A stretch of DNA of 64,000 nucleotides from Yuukianura sp. NJ FZ-2021 (lineage: Eukaryota): positions 5,022,001 to 5,086,000 of the forward strand of contig CM102290.1 in the NCBI GenBank assembly GCA_046563655.1, written 5' to 3'. Shown piece by piece: positions 41,212 through 64,000 of the stretch (positions are counted from its first letter, which is position 1; every line of letters starts with the position of its first letter). A program made the position numbers and the translations under genes. The notes below the pieces were generated by a model. The model saw only the letters and a program-made list of their open reading frames with translations, was not told where the DNA came from and did not search any database.

Positions 41212-44200
41212 CTATGACTTGAGAATACTGGCAGTATGTGTTGGTTGTGGACGTCTGCGCACAAAAAATCCCCATCTGTACAGGCAGAAAATTATTAGAA
41301 GGAGAACGAGAATTCCGATGATACCTGCAAGAAGGTAAATGAGCCAAGAGACGCCTTCTGCTTCCACCTAGAATTTAAACAACAAAAGTGCTGTCTTATT
41401 TCCCAGTTTTCTGGATTCGCATTTGTGATTAATAAAATTGCGAAACGTGGACGAAATGAAATCTTCCAAAACTTGCTTACCTTTAGCTTCAAATCCGGTT
41501 GGGAAATCGTTAAAGCGTTAACAACGTCATTCACCGGATCCTGCCGGTTATCACCAGGGATTCGGAGTTGAGCTCTGGAATAAATATGAACCGCATCAAC
41601 CCCTGGATAATCTTCTACCAATGTGCTGTTCCAAAGTCTAAAAATAGAACACAGTATTGTCACAATTTAAACATTCTCGCAATAATTTTTCTGGCGTACA
41701 AATAACTAGCGTTTCTAGAGCGTACCTTGAGTGGACCTTAATGTGTGCACTGTCGGACGGTAACAGGCTTCGGACAACACAGATAATCGTCACGCAAATT
41801 GCAGAACCCCGGAGACAATCCTAAAGGAATTGAATATAAAGAACAATTTCAGAAATTAAATATTTAAAATGAAAATTCTTATTTTACCATTTTAACGATT
41901 TTCTGTTTCCGCCCACTACTGTCGATGAATGTTTCTGGAGAAACAACGATCTCACTTGCACGGTTGACCCTCTGACGTTGCGTTTCGGCTTGCTGCGGGC
42001 TTTCGACTGGAACGTATGGTAAGTCTCCCCCAGGCAAATCCAAAACATTGACTACGCCCGGCGGAACGAAACACTCTCCATCACCACTAATCTCGACCTT
42101 CTCCAAATACAAGAGCCACTTGCCCTCGGCCCAGAACACGGAATTGTTGTTTCCCACTTGATGAGGCCATCGTATTTCTATGTTGAAGTGTGAAGCTCTG
42201 GACGGACCATCGTTGAAGACTTCGTAAGTATGGACTACTTTACTCCCGATGTCACTAAGACTGCGCATAGCTGTTTCGCCCTTTACTGTTCCGCTATATG
42301 TAACTTCCATTGGCGTCGAAAGCCAACTGAGATAAAGTTCAGCGACCTTGACCACGGTCACAACCACCGACCTGTAGTTATTCGATTCCTCGTATTCGAT
42401 GGACGTTGAATTCGCCCAAACGTTAAAATCAAGTTGCGTTTCAATTTCCTTTAGAGCACTGGCATCGAAACGCATGGCCAGAACGTCGTCAAAGTCTTTT
42501 CGTTTGTAAGGATTGGCGATTGTACAAACAATGAGCGTTGAATTGAAAAGAGAGCAATCCAGATTTGTAACCTACATCAAACACAAACAATTAATTCAGC
42601 TATAACTATTCTAATACATGAGATTGCAATTTGCAAACATGCTAGTTATTTCGAAAATATTTACCAATAAATAATGCCAAAAAAAATCCTACACCTTAAG
42701 CAACAGAAAATAACTCAAGAAGCCGGAGTTTGTTGCATGAATTAAAGAATTGCTTCATTACGTTTTGGACTTGAGCAATGAAAGGCATCGACTTCGGATG
42801 CTCAATGAAGAGTTTCGCCTCGTAAGCTGGCTCGTCTAAATTCCGAAGAGTGATATTCAAGATAAACTCCTTCTGCTTCCCTAAGATGAGGACATAACGA
42901 CCAGTTTCATCCTCATCCAAGTCAGTAGTTGCGAGTACAAACAAATCACTTCGACAGAGGTCGTCCACTCCACAATCTTTCTCGAAGAAGGCTTGAAACG
43001 ACTTAAAGGCCTCTTGCTGATTCAGAATTGGGAAGTTTTGAATAGAAGGTAATGGCATGTTAGGAATGTAGCGTGGTTCTAGCTGCACAAGGGCGAACGT
43101 CATAGTGAAAGTTATTGGCGTCAGGATATCCTTCATGGGTTTCTGCTCAAATACGAACAATTAGATTTTGGAATTGGATATTAAACATTATTAGAGCTCA
43201 TCTTTAGTAGAAAATATGTACCCTCAAATAAGCAACTTCTTTTTCGCAATGTTTTCCAACTTCATTTTGCCTAACGTAAATAACCTTCTGAACAGTGTGG
43301 TTCATGTTCTCAAGGCCATTTTGGAAGTACACACGAGAGTATTTCTTCCCAGGCTCTGCCTTTGCCTCTAGTGTATAGTTTACTCCCAGATTCGCTACAT
43401 GTACTTTGGCTGCATCCCGAATTTCAAAACATGTAATAATTCTGAAACTGTCAAACAAATAAATTTGATCATCCTAGCCCTTTACTAACTTCGATAGAAT
43501 TGAAGTATCGCCATATTAAGGTATTACCATACAGTAGGGGCATCTACATCTTCAGGACATCCATCGACGCTTGGATCAATCCCTGTTAGGTTTCCGTACA
43601 CTTCAGTGCTAATGTCAATGATTGGCCTGGCTCGAAGTAGAATCGCAGTGCTGGACTCGTAAGCCCCAACTAGAAGGTCCGGATAAGAATTCCCATCTAA
43701 ATCCACTCCTCCACTCAACGAGTACCCGAACGTCAACACATCCGGAAAATATTGTATAGCACGAATCACCTGCACAAATTAAATCCATCATTAAATCAAC
43801 CACTTTTATGTAACAGTCCTACGAAGTAGTATGTTACAAACTGAACCTGAGCTGGTTCCGTGACAACACCGAGACTGGAACCAAGATAAATATAAACAGC
43901 TCCATGTCCAGCGTCATCATACGGTGCTCCCACGGCCAAATCCTCAAACCCATCATGATTCAAGTCCCCAAGAGAGCTCAGCGCAAATCCAAATCTGGAA
44001 TCCGAAGGTCCCGTCAGCTTAACAAAGGGAGTCTTCACACTAAACCCGGTTCCGTCATTAATGTAGATATACACAGCTCCGCTGTCCCCGCCAACCTTGG
44101 GATCCAGCATGTAAAACGGTGCTCCAACTGCTAAGTCCGTCCGACTAAAATTAACAAAAATGGCTTTTAGCTTTTTCCAATGGCTGAGTTTTGAATCCTT

Positions 44201-47200
44201 ACTTGTCTCCATTAAGATCCAAGGCAGCCAGTTCGTAACCGTATGAGGACGCGAATCCTTCCCCCGTCAGTACTCCTTCAGGCTGCAGCACTTCGCTAGA
44301 ATTCTAAAAACAGATAAGAAGCATTAATTAACTGAAACAGCTTTTACAAATTTAGCGTGAAGTGTACGCGTGTCAATAAATAAAAGTACCAAATTCAGCA
44401 TTTGTACACAACAACAAACAAATGTTTTGGAAAACATAGTACTACTGTTGCATGTACCTACGAATAGTTAAAAAAAGCTACAACTGAGTGGTTACGATAG
44501 TTTAGGTTATGTGTGAGAACAATGTAACCTACATTAGTTCCGACAAAGTATTATGGCAAGTAGGTAAGTGAACAATGTACCTACATTTATGTTATGTTCG
44601 ACTACATAGTTTTAAGTTCTGTACTTTTGCTCCTGGAGGGAAGACACCCATTTTTTTTTCTTTGAGTTCGACTGGACTAAACTAAATTTCTTTTTCGTGT
44701 CTACTCAGTAATTGGTACACTCAACTTAAGTTCTTGAAATGACAATGTTTGACCGCGCCCCATCACATTCGGCTGGAAAGTAATGATTATACTAATAAGA
44801 ACCGGCCATAGTTTCGGTCGCCTGATTTGGTCGTCTGACTTCAATTTGGACACTCTCGATAAGACTGTCTTAGAATGACTTTGAATTACCTTGGAGAAAA
44901 AGAGAACTTGACCGGATCCGTTGGCAGCTTTCGGAGCCCCTGTCGCATATGAGTATTTACTGGGCCCGAAGAACTTTCCTCCAGTGACAGACATGCCAAG
45001 GTATGAATACTTGTCAACGGGACTTAGGATCCCAAAGGGAGAGTGGTAGTGCTGTCGGTCCTTGTTCAAGTAATCATCAGATACGGAAATTCCATAAATC
45101 GTTCCACGACAAGTGTAGGCACCAGGAGCACCCATCAGAGCAGTGTCGTCATCCACCAAATGTCCCGCCGTACCCACTTGACAAAATCCAAAGTCCTCCA
45201 AACCCTGACGCTGCTTATTGCGACATGGCTCAAGCGTCTGGCTATACGATAAATTTTCATCCAGGAAGTGACACAAACCAAGACCCCAACGAAAGTCATC
45301 ACCTTTGTGAACGTACCGATGAGCACAGACCTACAAGTCCAAAAAAAACTAATTATATGTACAGCATAGGTGCAAACGAAAATCAGAATCTTAATACAAA
45401 ATATTCTCTAAATAAGTAACTGAAAACCTCAAACTCTTAATAAAATATAAACTTCATGGTTGCATAATATTAAATATTATATTATATTGCATAGCAAAAG
45501 AATATAAACTCCATTTCTTTTTAGTGAGGCCTCAGTGCGGCCGCAAAGGAAGCCTCACTTGAGGCCCACGCCACAAGAAATGGAGAAAGGGCTGAGGTTT
45601 TTAAAATTTGCTTATTTAGAGAATGTTACTGTAATTTGCGATGTCCTGGCTTTGAAACTTTCACTTTTCGGTGACTTGCTCTAATTTATCACTACACTTA
45701 CCATGACCTTCCCTCCTTTGCCTTGGCTTTTGACAGTGACCCCAAGCCACTGCCCATCTTTGTACTCGTCATTTGAGGGTTGGTACAGATTATCTGATCC
45801 AATTGCTGTTGAAAAAATACAAAAAGTGAAAATTTCGGTCGGAATTACTAATTTAGAGCATGCACTAATAAACTCGATGGTTGCCAAACGTTGGTTTGGA
45901 ATTCGGGAGTTCATTGCAAACAAAAACCATTACATATTCACAAAAAAACGCAGATTTCGAGCAAAAATCATGCCCAGTCCTTTTATATTTGCAAAATTCA
46001 CAAACCCAAGCACATTCCTTTCCGATTTGCTGATCTTGTCAAGTGGTTTTTCTAAGTGAATTTGAATGCCCACCCGTACGCTTCACGTAATTATTTCAAA
46101 TCCACCCTAGCCAAGTTCAGAGCCCTTTAACATGCACGAGCATAAAACTAAAAACTTTCAAACTTCACACATTTCCGAACTTAGTTTTGTCGCCCCTCCC
46201 ACACAGGCTTGTGTACATCCGTTGTTGGTCCATACATGATGCAAAACAAACGCGAAAAATGCTTTTACCTCTTTACTCCAGCATGGCATACATTGGTCGT
46301 TTTGTTTCCAATCTTGGCATTTCTCAGGGTCAAACCATCTTCCCATCCCATAAAAAATGGAATTCAGAGGGGTGAAAGGATATTAATTTTGTGCAACTTA
46401 GCGTGCGGAAATTGTGCTAAAAGTGTTACTTCTTGTAGCAAGCGTTAGTAATTTTAGATCTTACATAGCAAACGAAATACTAAGGCACAGTCAGCCATGG
46501 AGTCCGAGCAAAGAATATCTAGCGACTGCATATCGCTTGTTTCTCTCTCTTCTACGCAATTAAAATGCTTCAAGTCCCACTAAGGAATCAAACAGCTAAA
46601 AAATTCAACTTTAAGTTCTCGATTTCCTAGGTAGATTTACGTTTTTACATGCACACGCTGTTAAATGAAATCAATCGTATCTGGACATGCGGTTCGATTT
46701 TTAGTAGGAAATTCGTTCCGCATGCAACAAATCATTAGAGCATGTACCACGCTTAATTCCCAGCAACCACACCGATGAATTTGAAGTCAAAATTTAGCCT
46801 CACTTACAGGAATCATAACTTTTGGAGACTGGATCTACAATGAAAATAGAAACATAAGTAAGAAAAAAAAAACAATGAGATTTACATTTTTTGTGTAACA
46901 AGAGCCGAGTCCAGAAGGTTCTGTCTGTGTCTGAACCAGCGCTAACGCAAGTGAATGTCGGTTGATACAGTACAGTAACCGTCCAGTTGACATGAACATG
47001 TAGGATAACGTACACTGATTTTTGAAAAGTTACTACAAAACTAATTCGGTGTGGTAAAAACAATTTTGCAGTTACCATAATATACCGATAACGACGCTTG
47101 GTATTTTCGTTTTTGCGAGTCCCGTCTTAAAATACCAATTCTACCAGCGGTATGTTCGGTGGGAACGGGAAATGCAAAAAAAGTTACGACCCACTTAAAC

Positions 47201-57800: not shown

Positions 57801-58801
57801 CTAACCGAGTGCGTTTAACTAAATAAGTACTAAAACAGTAATCTGGAGTCTTTTTTGTGCGAAGGTACCTTACACGGCCTCAGTGAAACCGTGCTATCGC
57901 TGCCGCGGGATTGGTACTCTGGGGTGTCCCGTGTGCCACGGAAAGGGCTGGGTACGTAGTAGTATTAACAGTAAGACAAACAACCTGAAACGCCAAGTGC
58001 TTAATTTGTGAATGTATTGATTAGTCACGCTGTCTCGCTTGTGCTGGGGAAGGTTTTGGACTTGGTGTAGGCGAGTCCAGGGAACGCTGTATTGTGTGTA
58101 CAGCGTCTGCGCACGGTCACGGACGACAAGACTGCCCACGCTGTGGAGCCAAAGGACGGATTCCTTGCTCCATCTGTGATTCTTACGGACAACTGAAATG
58201 CTACGTTCAACTTACTGTTTCCTGGTAAGGTAACGATTCCAGTAAAACAGACTTATACTCTCTATACTTATAGGTTCTCTGATTAATACTTAATTGTAAC
58301 CGGATTTAAATAGGAGGGTGGCCGTTGGGGAATACGTTAGTGGTGGTGATACTTTGTCGCCTGAGTTCATAAGACAAGGGGAAGGACAAGTGGGGCTGGA
58401 GGAAACTGGAATACGTTTAACGGCACTACCGCCCGATACCTTCGGACCGGATGAAAGCCTCGCCTTGGCATCAACCCAACTCATCAATGAGCATTTGGAA
58501 AATTCCGCTGATGCGCTACTACTTGCTCAAGTAAATGATTAACTATTATAGTTGCCTAAAGTTAAAAGTGACGCAATTGTACATAATAAAGTTGAATCCC
58601 ACCAATGCAACTTGTCGCCACCGAGGCTGACTCTTTATTTTCTAAACTTTGTAGCGACATCAAGTGCGCATGGTTCCAGTGACGGTGGTTGACTACCAAT
58701 GGAAACGACACCAGGGGAAATTCTACATATATGGCATGGAAAAGCGAGTCTGTGCTCCGAAGTACCCACAGACATGCTGTTGTGGCTGTTCCATTCTATG
58801 A
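54896..58801 (+). CDS. SSUH2: Protein SSUH2 homolog (DnaJ-like CxxCxGxG zinc-finger repeats, C-terminal CaaX); start exon not resolved
   Basis: Exons 54896-54982, 56391-56503, 57488-57778, 57865-57951, 58025-58224, 58314-58530 and 58655-58801 join in frame. Motifs: APPLEVLDVVPGYE, IPQMTEEMVKDALLSHVKSQCCWG, YILHTFTEKR, PWDI, VPYTASVKPCYRCRGIG..CPVCHGKG, CPRCGAKG, FYIYGMEKRVCAPKYPQTCCCGCSIL*. AATAAA follows at 58927-58932. Confidence 0.88.
57019..57213. mobile_element. hAT-type MITE (195 bp) in an SSUH2 intron
   Basis: TIR CAGGG(T/A)TGTCAAA(A/C)ATATT; 8-bp TSD GTAATAAC/GTAATAAG (7/8 match); the TIR is related to that of the 38818 element. Confidence 0.8.
57243..57432. mobile_element. MITE with ~29-bp TIR in an SSUH2 intron
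   Basis: AGTCGCGGCGACCAATTTAGCTCCGGTTT pairs with AAACTGGAGCTAAATTGGTTGCCGCGACT (2 mismatches). Confidence 0.75.
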
Positions 58802-59339: not shown

Positions 59340-62300
59340 TCACGGGATTTTTGCAAGATGCTTAGCGATGATAGTTGTACTGAGCACATTTGGCTTTTCA
59401 TCATCATCCTTTCCAGAATCCATGTTAACGTCGCCATTGGCGTCCTGCTCCGGTTGCAATCTCAAATCTTGTTCCAATTTCCAGCCCCACAAGAATCGAT
59501 TCATCAGACAAAACCTACAGGAACATAACAAAGTTAAACATTATCGTATCGTACTTTCTGCGCTTATCATCATAATGAGTGTATTTCCTTAAACTACACA
59601 ACTTATATCAACATAACAACTTATCAAAAAAAAAAACGTGAGTCTGGATCATAATTCTACACAAAGTTGGAGAACATTCCTAATGCTATTAAATGATTAT
59701 TTTAACTACGTAAATAGTATGCTGTAGCAGGAGTAGGATACTACTACTACATCATTCATACTAGTAAGCATTACTTACAAGGCATCTGCCGGTGCAAATT
59801 TTTCTTTCACAATTCTCATGAACATGATTCCAACGGCGCAATAGACAGTCCCATCATTCTGATGAAGTTGAACTGGTGCCAAAAACTTTGGAGGACCTTC
59901 GTTTTCTTCAAACGTTCGAACGCGTTCATTTTCTTCCACGCTGAACAAAGACAAAAATGGAAACAGTTTAAAGTATTATTTTGCCAATAATAAGGTTACT
60001 AAACAATGAAATTACACTCACTGTTCCATGTGCTTCAGGAAGTACGACAACTCGTAACGTGGTTTAGCTCTGATTTTTGCCAAATCTGGACGGCTGGCCT
60101 TGTTCATGGACGTAGCGTACTTGACAATCAGATCATAACGCTCATTAGCAGCCAATGCACGAATGTCATTTCCACCTTGTAATGAACATATAAAATGAGG
60201 TGCGATTGCGAAAAAGACACTGTATGAGAGGTTGTAATTTAAATTAAAATTACCAAGAATAAGAGCATCAATGATGTGAAAGCCAGTAGTAATAGATTGG
60301 TTTGCCCCGTTCATTTTGATTTCGTCCACCAAATCAGCGTAGACAAGCGTGTTGTTCATCAATTCGATCTTTTCGTTCACTTCGTTCCATTTTGCTCCAC
60401 CAAAACTGTAGTTAAGTGTTCCGCCCAAACACAAAAAGAAAGCACGCATGCGGCCAACAGTAACGAAAATCCATTCCTTTGAATTGGTCATTTCTTCAAC
60501 CAAGTTCATTGGATTCAAATCCATCTCGCCTTGCAACTCGCAATCGCGATAAAAATCTAGTAACAACAAACAAATAACGATCATTAGAAACTATTAAAAA
60601 TCCGAAAATAAAACACATCACATACTTGGCGCGAGGAAAATAATTTTAATTACCAAACGGGTACGGGATGACCAACTTCATTGCTCGCAAATCCGCAGTA
60701 GATGCCTTGGCGTATTTTGGTTTTTGTCGACATTGTTTCGGAATCTGCCACTGTTCGTTGCACTTATTTTGAATTTGTCGAAGACGCTGATTGACATACT
60801 CATTTTCCATTCCAGCCTCCATTTTTTGGAGAAGATATTTTGTTTCTGCATGCTGGCGACGCCCAAGCCTGAAAAAAACATAATAAATAATAATGAACAT
60901 AAATAAAATGAAAATAAATAATGAATTAAACAAATATAGTACATTCAAAACCTATGCATAAATGAGGAAATTGGCTTACTCGGTATTAGTCCGGTAAATG
61001 TAGTCGCAGAATGCCCTGGTGTCTTTAATTCGTTCACGAGCCACCAAATGTACTATATCAGCTGGGTCCTCGGAGCCACGACTATTACGTCGAGAACGCT
61101 TAGCGAGCCAATCGACTTTGTGACACTCCGAAAGGTAGTTGATAATCTCCCGAGTATGGTATTCAGACTTACGCCACTTACAAATGATGTATCTCTCGGA
61201 ACTTGCCGGAAGTGAAGACTCCGGTTTGAAGATAGCGACATCGTCGAAGCAACGGTACATGAGGTAAATAAGTCCAACCGTAAACGGCGTGTAACTGTCG
61301 TAAATGCGACAAACGTAGTGACCACCTTGTCTGATGCATCGAAGGGCACAAAGAAACTCAGCCAAGAATAGGTATTTGCATCGCACTTCTTTCTGATCTT
61401 CATCGACAAAGTCGTTGCGGTCGCCGCCACTGGCAATGCAGAAATGGACGCCTTTATTGTTGGTGCAGTCTTTGACAAACTGTGAGAACTTGGCCACGTT
61501 GTAGGGATTGCTGATGTCCCCAGTCCCTTCAATACCGTCATCCCCATAGAATGCCTCGAAGCTCTCTCGCGGGTAGTGCTCCGCTTGCATCAAATTGTAG
61601 TCCAATTTTCCCCGAGGACTGATCCCGAAGCCTTTAGTATGCCACTTCTTCTTCCAAAGGAAGTACTCTGCAGTACCGCCTGGTCCACCATAAATATCAG
61701 CAAAGTAGAGAAGTTCGTTGGGTCCAATCATGCTCGTGCCATTCCTATCTTTAGGGTTTGATAACCCGTATTCCATTAGTGCATCAATGTTCGCCATTTT
61801 GATAGCCGCTCCGTGATGAAAAATAGCCCCACGCTCAAATTCGAATTCGTTGTAACGATTTCGCACGCTTGCAAACTTCTCCGCACTGATTCGTTTGATG
61901 TGTCCTTTCGCGTCCATCAATTGCTCGAGTGATCGTCTATCGCAGTAAGTACAGTCGATGTACATAGCAGGAGCCTCGGGTGCTACAATACGTTCCATCA
62001 GAAGCATGCTGAAGGTTAGCGGAACCAAACTATGTTCCGGCGGAATCCAATGAATTCTACTTCGCTCTCCCTCTAGCTTTTCTTGGTTAAGTGGAGAAAC
62101 AGTGACGTGTGTTGCGCCAGATACATAGGAATCCTCAGAAGATGATTCCGACATTACATCCATGGCCATACGCCTTGGACTTCCGTCCGTAGAAGATTCG
62201 TCGGACGAAAACTCCAGTTCCCGCTTGTTGCCAGAGAGTAGTTGGCTTCGGGATGGCCCAGGCACCGGAACTGGTGGACGCAGTTGATCCTGATTCACAA

Positions 62301-62562
62301 CTGGTGCCGGACGTCTCAACTTGACGGACACACCACAGTTGTAGAGCTGGCAAAACACCCGAAACGGAGGTGATAGAAGAAGGGTGGCCCATGTCAATCC
62401 ATATTTCTCCGGGTACACGTATGTCTTGAACTGGCTAAAGTACAAACGACCTAATTCCGGAATATCATACCCGTCTGGTGCCCGCTTTTGCAGCAATGAC
62501 CGGATGTTGTTGATGACGTAGTCCGGGATTTCTTCGTTCCCGGGATGTTGAGTACGAAGCAT
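59340..62562 (-). CDS. CMTR1: CMTR1-like cap-specific mRNA 2'-O-methyltransferase (FtsJ/RrmJ fold plus degenerate guanylyltransferase-like region), divergent paralog with a putative N-terminal LOTUS domain; about 863 aa
   Basis: Exons 60980-62562, 60654-60868, 60254-60556, 60022-60175, 59779-59940 and 59340-59514 join in frame (2592 nt). CMTR1 hallmarks: AAIKMANID, LLYFADIYGGPGGTAEYFLWKKKWHTKGFG, FEAFYG..GTGDI, TPFTVGLIYLMYRCF..VAIFKPESSLPASSERYIICK, HIIDALILG..DIR, SRPDLAKIRAK. The first in-frame ATG is at 62562, with an in-frame TAA upstream. Confidence 0.87.
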
Positions 62563-63928: not shown

Positions 63929-64000
63929 TGTGCGCAGTAGCGCAGATTGTGCGCAGTAGCGCAGATTGTGCGCAGTAGCGCAGATTGTGCGCAGTAGCGC
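63929..64000. repeat. 19-bp tandem repeat running off the window end
   Basis: Perfect copies of TGTGCGCAGTAGCGCAGAT, about 3.8 units visible. Confidence 0.92.

Follow-up and report, generated by a model that had tools for sequence, protein, structure and literature searches.

The window, that is, the whole stretch of 64,000 nucleotides of Yuukianura sp. DNA analysed here, carries on its minus strand a paralogue of the cap methyltransferase CMTR1 (59340..62562, stop codon included). The coding region consists of six exons (62562-60980, 60868-60654, 60556-60254, 60175-60022, 59940-59779, and 59514-59340) that together encode 863 aa. Every intron has GT-AG borders, and the spliced reading frame runs through without an internal stop; the model agrees with the six exons and 863 aa put forward in the original prediction. 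Exon 1 (60980..62562, minus strand) by itself encodes the N-terminal domain, an acidic and Ser-rich linker, and the entire methyltransferase (MTase)-like domain. A tblastn search of the 64-kb window with the product matches only its own locus, and an Rfam scan of the same window gave no match. The closest named NCBI protein is 47% identical.

The core of the protein is a CMTR1-type Rossmann-fold MTase-like domain (aa 166-527; 60982..62067, minus strand), which matches human CMTR1 with an E-value of 3e-75. In a phmmer search of PDB sequences, aa 169-526 match chain 4N48_A (E 3.4e-75) and the full-length chain 8P4E_O (E 1.9e-74), and Pfam FtsJ matches aa 252-463 (E 3.4e-16). The protein is a member of a small family of CMTR1 paralogues that had not been described before. 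In the literature covered, which leaves out most subscription journals, no description was found of a protein that combines a LOTUS/OST-HTH domain with CMTR1 or a cap methyltransferase.

Domain organization outside the methyltransferase-like core

The two ends of the paralogue differ from those of canonical CMTR1. The N-terminus bears a weak resemblance to an OST-HTH/LOTUS domain, and the probable LOTUS-like segment (aa 12-84; 62311..62529, minus strand) stands in place of the canonical G-patch. The only Pfam match of the N-terminal 95 aa is PF12872 (E 0.011; score 16 bits, cut-off 23.8; positions 8-44 of the 71-position profile), with an E-value of 0.087 when the whole exon-1 protein is scanned. 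In the ESM Atlas, the best clusters for the N-terminus are arthropod OST-HTH clusters (score 0.92, 194/256 features shared), a likeness to be taken as a lead only. The segment is conserved in the metagenomic orthologue L001. Among PDB sequences, the N-terminus matched an esterase and designed repeat proteins, all with weak E-values, but no LOTUS protein; a homologue search with the N-terminal 95 aa yielded no candidate, and a Pfam scan of the two N-terminal exon pieces of L001, which are short and split the domain, found no OST-HTH match. AF2 models of the N-terminal 95 aa are of low confidence, both for the segment alone (pLDDT 45.8) and with the L001 exon as a second row (44.5). The LOTUS-like core is followed by Pro-rich sequence, and the low-confidence model has no helix past residue 80.

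The linker between this segment and the MTase-like domain (aa 85-165; 62068..62310, minus strand) is rich in Pro, Ser, and acidic residues and has no G-patch: there is no PF01585 match at E-values up to 0.1 and no counterpart of the canonical block in the alignment. PF01585 is carried by 64 of the 73 matches of the homologue search. Downstream of the MTase-like domain lies a guanylyltransferase-like domain (aa about 528-800; exons 2-5 with their introns, 59796..60981, minus strand). Exon 3 alone matches residues 595-666 of human CMTR1 (E 0.0029), and P0070, an orthologue, matches the human protein over residues 394-742 (E 2e-49). The WW-domain segment that would follow is missing. The chain runs through ...FAP/ADAL... 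(aa 800-806; 59779..59798, minus strand) and continues into exon 6 at 59514; the WW block of about 35-45 residues is present in 6/6 canonical rows and absent in both the window protein and P0070. In CMTR1, the G-patch is the module that recruits DHX15, and the WW domain binds the Pol II CTD. The recruitment of DHX15 to CMTR1 is reported in PMC6071836.

Catalytic tetrad, SAM motifs, and cap pocket

The original prediction held that the catalytic tetrad of this protein is broken, and the alignment to human CMTR1, which has no gap near any tetrad position and leaves residue equivalence unambiguous, bears this out: the paralogue has K-S-R-E where the human enzyme has K239-D364-K404-E441. K255 (61798-61800, minus strand; AAIKMAN aligned with AAMKMAN) is the retained equivalent of K239, and E456 (61195-61197, minus strand; SSERY aligned with NSERY) that of E441. 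The catalytic Asp, D364, is replaced by S378 (61429-61431, minus strand; IASGG aligned with MADGG), and the catalytic Lys, K404, by R419 (61306-61308, minus strand; CRIYD aligned with CKTFD). The coordinates of all four codons, recomputed here, agree with those first given, as does the reading SLPASSERY for SRPANSERY; only the number of the last human residue had to be corrected, from E432 to E441, by counting along the full-length chain. The Arg at the Lys position keeps the positive charge.

Among 217 related proteins, K-D-K-E is present at the aligned positions in 189, another 19 have at least one tetrad position unaligned (truncated or gapped), and 9 have a real substitution. In the paralogue family the substitutions are fixed. 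K-S-R-E is also present in L001 and L002, the two metagenomic orthologues with all four positions covered. Position by position, K255 is K in 5/5 orthologue sequences covering it; S378 is S in 3/3 (window, L001, L002), the D in 189/189 canonical proteins at this position being true by definition of the K-D-K-E set; R419 is R in 7/7 distinct orthologues (window, L001, L002, P0070, P0219, P0220, P0222); and E456 is E in 7/7 orthologues. A distant member of the family from Allacma fusca, P0001, has R, Q, K, and D at these positions. With R-Q-K-D in P0001 alongside K-S-R-E elsewhere, the catalytic Asp is absent in every member seen. The charged tetrad positions remain charged across the family, P0001 included. 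Since alanine substitution of each K-D-K residue is reported to kill both hMTr1 and hMTr2 (PMC3113572), the cap1 activity of the paralogue is predicted to be lost or altered, and the earlier suggestion to this effect is a reasonable one.

The SAM-binding loop had been described as largely intact, and it is so in the whole family. Motif I (FADIYGGPGG for FADVCAGPGG; aa 287-296; 61675..61704, minus strand) keeps D289, G293, P294, G295, and G296 across the family, and every member, even the divergent P0001, has kept motif I (D-x-x-G-x-P-G-G) and motif III (G-D-I). The equivalent of canonical C277 is Y or F in the family (Y in the window protein), and that of F283 is T in the window protein.

The loop after motif IV, on the other hand, is rebuilt. 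The sequence GGDRNDFVDEDQKE (aa 379-392; 61387..61428, minus strand) replaces canonical GGFSVEG-QENxQE, and the family form is a conserved GGDRNDxVDEDQKE; this pocket-lining loop is one residue longer and more acidic than the canonical one. It includes D381 at +3 from the Ser, E388 (human E373, kept), D389 (N374), and K391 (Q376); D381, R382, N383, and D384 are identical in the window protein, L001, and L002. In human CMTR1 this loop is reported to contact the first-nucleotide base and the m7G (PMC3941023). An Asp elsewhere in the catalytic position had been named as a finding that would speak against a dead enzyme. The tetrad Asp is indeed gone, but an acidic residue is present at +3 from it in all four covering members (SGGD; QGGE in P0001). 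Given this residue, and given that the motif-I Asp of hMTr2 is shifted by three positions according to Werner et al. (PMC3113572), a relocated catalytic Asp is conceivable.

Beyond the tetrad, 10 further residues are in contact with the m7G, the triphosphate, or the RNA in the human structure, and 7 of these differ in the paralogue (D207 to K, N234 to H, R235 to G, N374 to D, Q376 to K, R436 to L, N439 to S), and 3 of 10, the equivalents of K203, R218, and E373, are kept in the window protein. The human residue is found at these 10 positions in 140-184 of the 189 canonical proteins. Two of the three arginines of the cluster, or sandwich, formed by R218, R235, and R436, which grips the RNA backbone and the triphosphate of the cap, are lost. 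One is lost at H250-G251 (61810..61815, minus strand), which stands for human N234-R235 in this RNA-holding cluster; R235 is R in 176/189 canonical proteins, and the pair is H-G in the window protein, L001, L002, P0221, and P0224. The other is replaced by L451 (61210..61212, minus strand) at the R436 position, which is R in 184/189 canonical proteins and L in 8/8 distinct family sequences with coverage there, among them P0001. One of the three contacts kept in the window protein, the equivalent of K203, is not conserved within the family, as L002 and P0221 have Q there.

Orthologues, selection, and expression

The reading frame is under purifying selection. In other public runs, 15/15 exonic differences are synonymous: 13/13 in organism B, for which the probability under neutrality is 1.9e-9, and 2 more in runs X1 and X6. 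The same comparison gave 16 intronic substitutions, and all 6 indels are intronic. A narrower alignment (A2) in a metagenome locus search identified the orthologues L001 and L002, which are about 65-70% identical to the window protein and saturated at synonymous sites. A third locus, L003, was set aside as unrelated (43% over 30 aa). Against both L001 and L002, pN is far below pS; the overall pS against L001 is 0.85-0.90, a saturated value. In the comparison with L001, no other part of the protein is as constrained as the MTase-like domain (78% aa identity, pN 0.137, pS 0.90). The original prediction took the open frame as a sign of selection and suggested dN/dS among orthologues as a check; the synonymous differences and the comparison with the saturated L001 are both in favour of selection. 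Conserved replaced residues of this kind fit any constrained new function, catalytic or not.

At least seven distinct orthologues have frames intact in the parts seen and the same residues. In a phylogenetic tree, the family is its own clade (SH-aLRT 100) that branches among metazoan CMTR1s; its stem is very long, at 2.45 substitutions per site, and its internal branches are short. The MTase-like part has giant-virus FtsJ clusters as its ESM Atlas look-alikes (0.97). On account of the metazoan guanylyltransferase-like domain and of the position among metazoan CMTR1s in a tree that held no viral sequences, the likeness is read as confined to the domain and not as a sign of viral origin.

As for expression, the 1,564-nt P0070 contig is colinear with all five exon junctions and too short for five introns, and it appears to be derived from mRNA. 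In the metatranscriptome run X6, two contigs (61792-62060 and 62118-62368, depth about 3) lie inside exon 1 and cover no junction; libraries of this type can contain DNA, and these contigs fall short of proving transcription.

Possible functions and comparison with known systems

The explanation that we favour, with somewhat better than even confidence, is that the gene is a neofunctionalised CMTR1 paralogue, predicted to be dead for cap1 2'-O-methylation and acting as a candidate binding module. Because both the catalytic and the cap-gripping residues are replaced and the partner-binding ends are swapped, the normal cap mark is probably no longer made, and a new, RNA-related role has probably taken its place. 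The family would have passed through a burst of change on its stem and then remained constant under purifying selection. In this process, the paralogue would have dropped co-transcriptional cap1 2'-O-methylation, and its MTase-like domain would have turned into a non-catalytic module, possibly SAM-bound, for binding RNA or protein. The LOTUS-like domain would bring the paralogue to its targets, and the ligand would differ from the canonical cap0 5' end.

The main, though less likely, alternative is that the protein has remained a SAM-dependent methyltransferase but works by changed chemistry or on a changed substrate; it may act on another 5'-end structure, on a base instead of the 2'-OH, or on the 2'-OH by means of D381 and the Arg. 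This is what one could read from SAM motifs I and III being conserved even in P0001, from substituted positions and a rebuilt loop that are invariant among the window protein, L001, and L002, and from a +3 acidic residue in all four covering members, for which the three-position shift of an Asp is a family precedent (PMC3113572); constraint within the protein is also strongest in the MTase-like domain. The kept SAM motifs fit an enzyme as well as a binder, since the non-catalytic RFM domain of CMTr2 is reported to have lost them (PMC3113572). However, a single conserved catalytic mechanism is hard to reconcile with P0001, whose R-Q-K-D differs from K-S-R-E at all four positions. Arg is moreover a poor general base, and two of the three substrate-holding arginines are gone. 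The K-D-K alanine mutants of hMTr1 and hMTr2, all of them dead (PMC3113572), speak against activity as well.

It is improbable that the protein is a reader that binds canonical m7G-capped 5' ends in the manner of CMTR1 without methylating them. This proposal, made in the original prediction, presumes an intact cap site, and 7 of the 10 contacts are changed, R235 to G and R436 to L among them. The fold and the SAM site are kept, as are the equivalents of K203 at the floor of the pocket, of R218, and of E373, which stacks on m7G, and K203A is reported to strongly reduce binding in the human enzyme (PMC3941023); yet the K203 equivalent varies within the family (Q in L002 and P0221), and the pocket loop is longer by one residue and more acidic. 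To a functionless gene, whether a pseudogene (young or decaying) or an artefact of annotation, we assign next to no probability. The broken catalytic residues, the thin RNA evidence, and the lack of a close annotated orthologue among NCBI proteins (the best named one being 47% identical) would be in keeping with it, but it is ruled out by the selection data: all 863 codons can be read without interruption through the six exons and their GT-AG introns are intact, 15/15 exonic differences are synonymous and 6/6 indels intronic, pN is far below pS against L001 and L002, and the same residues recur in the intact frames of at least seven distinct orthologues. The neutral young pseudogene that would have spoken against the original prediction is thus contradicted.

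The favoured reading of a non-catalytic binding module has a speculative extension, which we regard as rather unlikely. The paralogue would be a convergent Oskar-like organiser in an arthropod lineage, in which a LOTUS domain and an enzyme-derived, dead RNA-end-binding domain nucleate or sort RNPs in germ plasm, nuage, or similar granules; what was once the cap-MTase pocket would now accept a protein ligand or an RNA with a non-canonical 5' end, perhaps depending on SAM. The germ-granule role had already been proposed for this protein; we do not adopt it as it stood, its basis being an N-terminus of weak LOTUS likeness (a sub-threshold Pfam match, E 0.011) and a language-model look-alike.

In animals, CMTR1 is generally regarded as one unvarying housekeeping enzyme. 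The family described here is a conserved set of paralogues that keep the fold and the SAM motifs; their tetrad is fixed in a non-canonical form, their cap pocket is remodelled, the two recruitment modules known from CMTR1 are missing, and a LOTUS-like segment has been added at the N-terminus. Such paralogues would be pseudo-enzymes that arose in nature from a cap methyltransferase, or else methyltransferases whose chemistry is new. They also call for caution in annotation, as UniRef labels P0001 'Cap-specific mRNA (nucleoside-2'-O-)-methyltransferase 1' despite its R-Q-K-D.

Among known systems, metazoan CMTR1 (hMTr1/FTSJD2; PDB 4N48, 4N49, 8P4E) is the closest. Its MTase domain is homologous over the full length, with about 42% identity in the aligned part, and the likeness extends to SAM motifs I and III, the K239 and E441 equivalents, and the inactive guanylyltransferase-like domain that follows. 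The paralogue differs by Ser for D364 and Arg for K404, the 7/10 changed contacts, the rebuilt motif-IV loop, the absence of the G-patch and the WW domain, the LOTUS-like N-terminus, and its separate clade. The C-terminal RFM domain of CMTr2 (hMTr2/FTSJD1) is, like the paralogue, a Rossmann-fold domain of the same superfamily without a K-D-K site. It is reported to be needed for function and substrate binding (PMC3113572, PMC3941023) and is thus a precedent for a dead RFM domain as a binding module. That domain, according to PMC3113572, has lost SAM motifs I-III and shares a chain with an active domain, whereas the paralogue keeps motifs I and III and is predicted to have no active MTase domain. 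A non-canonical triad also occurs in other cap-MTase family members found in nature, namely uncharacterised fungal relatives of hMTr1 and hMTr2 without K-D-K and Plasmodium variants with Y-(N/D)-K, which Werner et al. read as cases of changed specificity or inactivity (PMC3113572). Compared by description only, they belong to other lineages and have other substitutions, and no LOTUS-like domain is reported for them in the relevant part of that source.

The likeness to LOTUS/OST-HTH proteins, such as Oskar, TDRD5/Tejas, TDRD7/Tapas, and MARF1, lies in OST-HTH as the sole Pfam match, which is below the cut-off, and in the ESM Atlas clusters. In Oskar, a LOTUS domain is combined with an inactive domain of enzyme origin. 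Binding of LOTUS domains to G-rich RNA has been reported (PMC7498356), and the Vasa-binding eLOTUS class is defined by a helical C-terminal extension (PMC5458760). In the paralogue no such extension is evident and a Pro-rich stretch is found there instead; the N-terminus, if it is a LOTUS domain, looks like one of the minimal class.

Gene structure and the catalytic tetrad

The CMTR1-like gene lies on the minus strand of the window, and a model with GT-AG introns, built from the sequence, places its six exons at 62562-60980, 60868-60654, 60556-60254, 60175-60022, 59940-59779, and 59514-59340. When joined, they form an open frame of 863 codons, reproducing the six-exon ORF of about 863 aa in the original prediction. 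In a tblastn search of the product against the window, its own locus is the sole match. The catalytic-site finding falls in exon 1, whose 527-aa protein matches FtsJ in Pfam (E 3.4e-16) and human CMTR1 in PDB (4N48, E 3.4e-75; full-length 8P4E, E 1.9e-74).

The alignment to human CMTR1 has no gaps around any of the four catalytic positions: K255 (AAIKMAN; human AAMKMAN) corresponds to K239, S378 (IASGG; human MADGG) to D364, R419 (CRIYD; human CKTFD) to K404, and E456 (SSERY; human NSERY) to E441. It bears out the original claim that the tetrad reads K-S-R-E in place of K-D-K-E. The codons that the claim named for the four residues were exact on recomputation; its human "E432" was a numbering slip, as counting along the full-length human chain (8P4E) gives E441. 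Among 217 relatives, the tetrad is K-D-K-E in 189, has an unaligned position in 19, and carries a real substitution in nine. Two related proteins, P0189 (693 aa, K-S-Q-E; a long branch beside dipteran CMTR1s, SH-aLRT 97) and P0186 (734 aa, K-S-K-E; a very long basal branch), broke their tetrads independently of the family, and degenerate CMTR1 copies may be recurrent.

Elsewhere in the window, minus-strand ORFs at 41879-45330 are integrin alpha exons, encoding FG-GAP repeats (E 1.7e-15) and the domains Integrin_A_Ig_2 (E 1.7e-13) and Integrin_A_Ig_3 (E 4.2e-24); they mark the window as animal DNA. Just downstream of the CMTR1-like gene, short ORFs on both strands (57823-58230) carry recurring CxxCxGxG-type cysteine motifs, without a Pfam hit at E up to 0.001. 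A 19-nt tandem repeat (63929-64000; 3.8 copies, 100% matches), some 1.4 kb upstream of the start codon, continues past the window end.

Orthologues and phylogeny

Word-indexed protein searches returned no close annotated orthologue. They found P0001, a protein named for Allacma fusca (47% identical), the partial P0070 (61%), and the fragments P0175 and P0219-P0225 (59-77%). An exhaustive representative search added no family member, its top matches being canonical CMTR1s at ~41% identity. A metagenome scan with the family alignment yielded two loci, which tblastn resolved as a near-complete orthologue (L001) and a partial one (L002). Both have K (AAIKMAN), S (..IAS and ..VASG), R (CRIYD and TRVYD), and E (SSERY and SAEKY) at the tetrad. 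Across distinct orthologues the first position is K in 5/5, the second S in 3/3, the third R in 7/7, and the fourth E in 7/7, with P0223 and P0225 (on the L001 contig) and P0175 (on the L002 contig) counted once with their loci. The MTase-like domain lies within one 1,583-nt exon in the window and is split in L001/L002 by extra introns after GGPGGxAE, after ..AS, and after the R.G preceding GHYV, suggesting that introns were lost in the lineage of the window.

A quick IQ-TREE analysis (LG+C20) used 46 rows (five family, 27 named canonical, and 14 unnamed or odd-tetrad), leaving aside ~180 other related proteins and containing no viral sequences. It unites the window protein, L001, L002, P0070, and P0001 in one clade (SH-aLRT 100), whose stem measures 2.45 substitutions per site and arises within an unresolved metazoan CMTR1 polytomy; long-branch effects on this placement are likely. 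Branches inside the clade are short, P0001 excepted. This distant member reads R-Q-K-D at the tetrad. P0001 (CAG7724277.1) bears the UniRef name cap-specific mRNA 2'-O-methyltransferase 1 despite R-Q-K-D and the loss of R436, so its functional annotation is likely wrong; its contig measures 3.2 kb, and contamination of the Allacma fusca assembly is possible. In the ESM Atlas, residues 166-527 of the exon-1 protein, its MTase-like part, are closest to FtsJ clusters of Nucleocytoviricota (0.97), which we read as a resemblance of stand-alone domains.

Selection and expression

The locus was found in public sequencing runs of two organisms. Contigs of organism B (run X5) differ from the window by 29 substitutions, 13 exonic and 16 intronic, and by six indels, all intronic. 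All 13 exonic changes are synonymous (neutral probability 1.9e-9, given that 21% of the exonic sites covered are synonymous), and single further synonymous changes in X1, possibly the sample behind the window's own assembly, and in X6, a metatranscriptome, bring the count to 15/15. Synonymous divergence to organism B (2.6%) is similar to that of introns (2.9%). Of these intronic differences, intron 2 (60557-60653) accounts for 12 of 16 substitutions and five of six indels, the other introns being far less variable. Between the window and L001, pS is saturated (0.85-0.90); pN is lowest, at 0.137, for the MTase-like domain (78% aa identity), rising to 0.216 for the C-terminal part and to ~0.43 for the N-terminal part and linker. 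Thus, no other part of the protein is as constrained as the catalytically "broken" domain.

P0070 spans all five exon junctions uninterrupted on a 1,564-nt contig, of which at most ~205 bases lie outside its 453-aa ORF; introns interrupt those junctions in both the window and L001. Such a contig would look mRNA-derived, with an intronless copy as the alternative. The metatranscriptome offers weak evidence of expression, namely two short contigs of low depth, both confined to exon 1.

The cap pocket, domain architecture, and possible function

According to Smietanski et al. 2014 (PMC3941023), human CMTR1 contacts m7G through K203, D207, E373, and N374, the triphosphate through R218, Q376, and residue 439 (printed as D439; N in the PDB chain sequence), and the second nucleotide through N234, and has an arginine sandwich of R218, R235, and R436. 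In sequence order, the window protein has K, K, R, H, G, E, D, K, L, and S at these ten positions, keeping three (the K203, R218, and E373 equivalents) and changing seven; the human residue occurs at them in 140-184 of the 189 K-D-K-E proteins. H-G replaces N234-R235 in the five orthologue sequences covering the site (N-P in P0001), L replaces R436 in all eight distinct family sequences covering it, P0001 included, and S replaces N439 in seven of eight (G in P0219); L002 and P0221 have Q at the position of K203. Motif IV is followed by a loop, GGDRNDxVDEDQKE, that is one residue longer than the canonical one and is the same in the window, L001, and L002, save x and one L001 residue at an intron. 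Motifs I (D-x-x-G-x-P-G-G) and III (G-D-I) are kept in all family members, with canonical C277 and F283 replaced. The site is remodelled beyond the tetrad.

In a MAFFT alignment of the window protein and P0070 with six canonical proteins, the canonical G-patch block has no counterpart in the window protein (nor does Pfam match a G-patch in the exon-1 protein), the guanylyltransferase-like domain is retained, and the WW-containing block is cleanly deleted in both family proteins. The homology of the guanylyltransferase-like domain is confirmed in PDB, where exon 3 aligns with human CMTR1 595-666 (E 0.0029) and P0070 with 394-742 (E 2e-49). The G-patch and WW domain presumably attach CMTR1 to its known partners, so their loss would uncouple the window protein from these. 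The sole Pfam match of the N-terminal 95 aa is OST-HTH/LOTUS (E 0.011), whose score of 16 bits falls short of the 23.8 cut-off. In the ESM Atlas, residues 1-90 are closest to arthropod OST-HTH clusters (0.92, 194 shared features), and L001 conserves this segment, with 51% identity over its second exon. Vasa binding by LOTUS needs a C-terminal extension, as shown by Jeske et al. 2017 (PMC5458760); a Pro-rich stretch follows the putative LOTUS core, and thus this extension is not evident. No paper pairing LOTUS/OST-HTH with CMTR1 or cap methyltransferases was found in the literature searched.

Werner et al. 2011 (PMC3113572) show that replacing any one of the K-D-K residues with alanine inactivates hMTr1 and hMTr2, which makes canonical cap1 methylation by the window protein very unlikely. 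We favor, by a modest preference, a non-catalytic binding module. The same paper describes fungal relatives without K-D-K and a C-terminal RFM domain of hMTr2 that has neither active site nor SAM motifs yet is essential. With most cap contacts gone (7/10 positions changed), the case for a module reading the canonical cap, as originally proposed, is weaker, and such a module would be rather improbable. A pseudogene without function is scarcely credible, being ruled out by the selection data. The serious rival to the non-catalytic binding module, less probable though plausible, would be a methyltransferase with altered activity: the SAM motifs are retained, the replacement residues have become fixed, and the family has an acidic residue three positions after the lost Asp, which echoes the shifted Asp that Werner et al. 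2011 (PMC3113572) describe in hMTr2.
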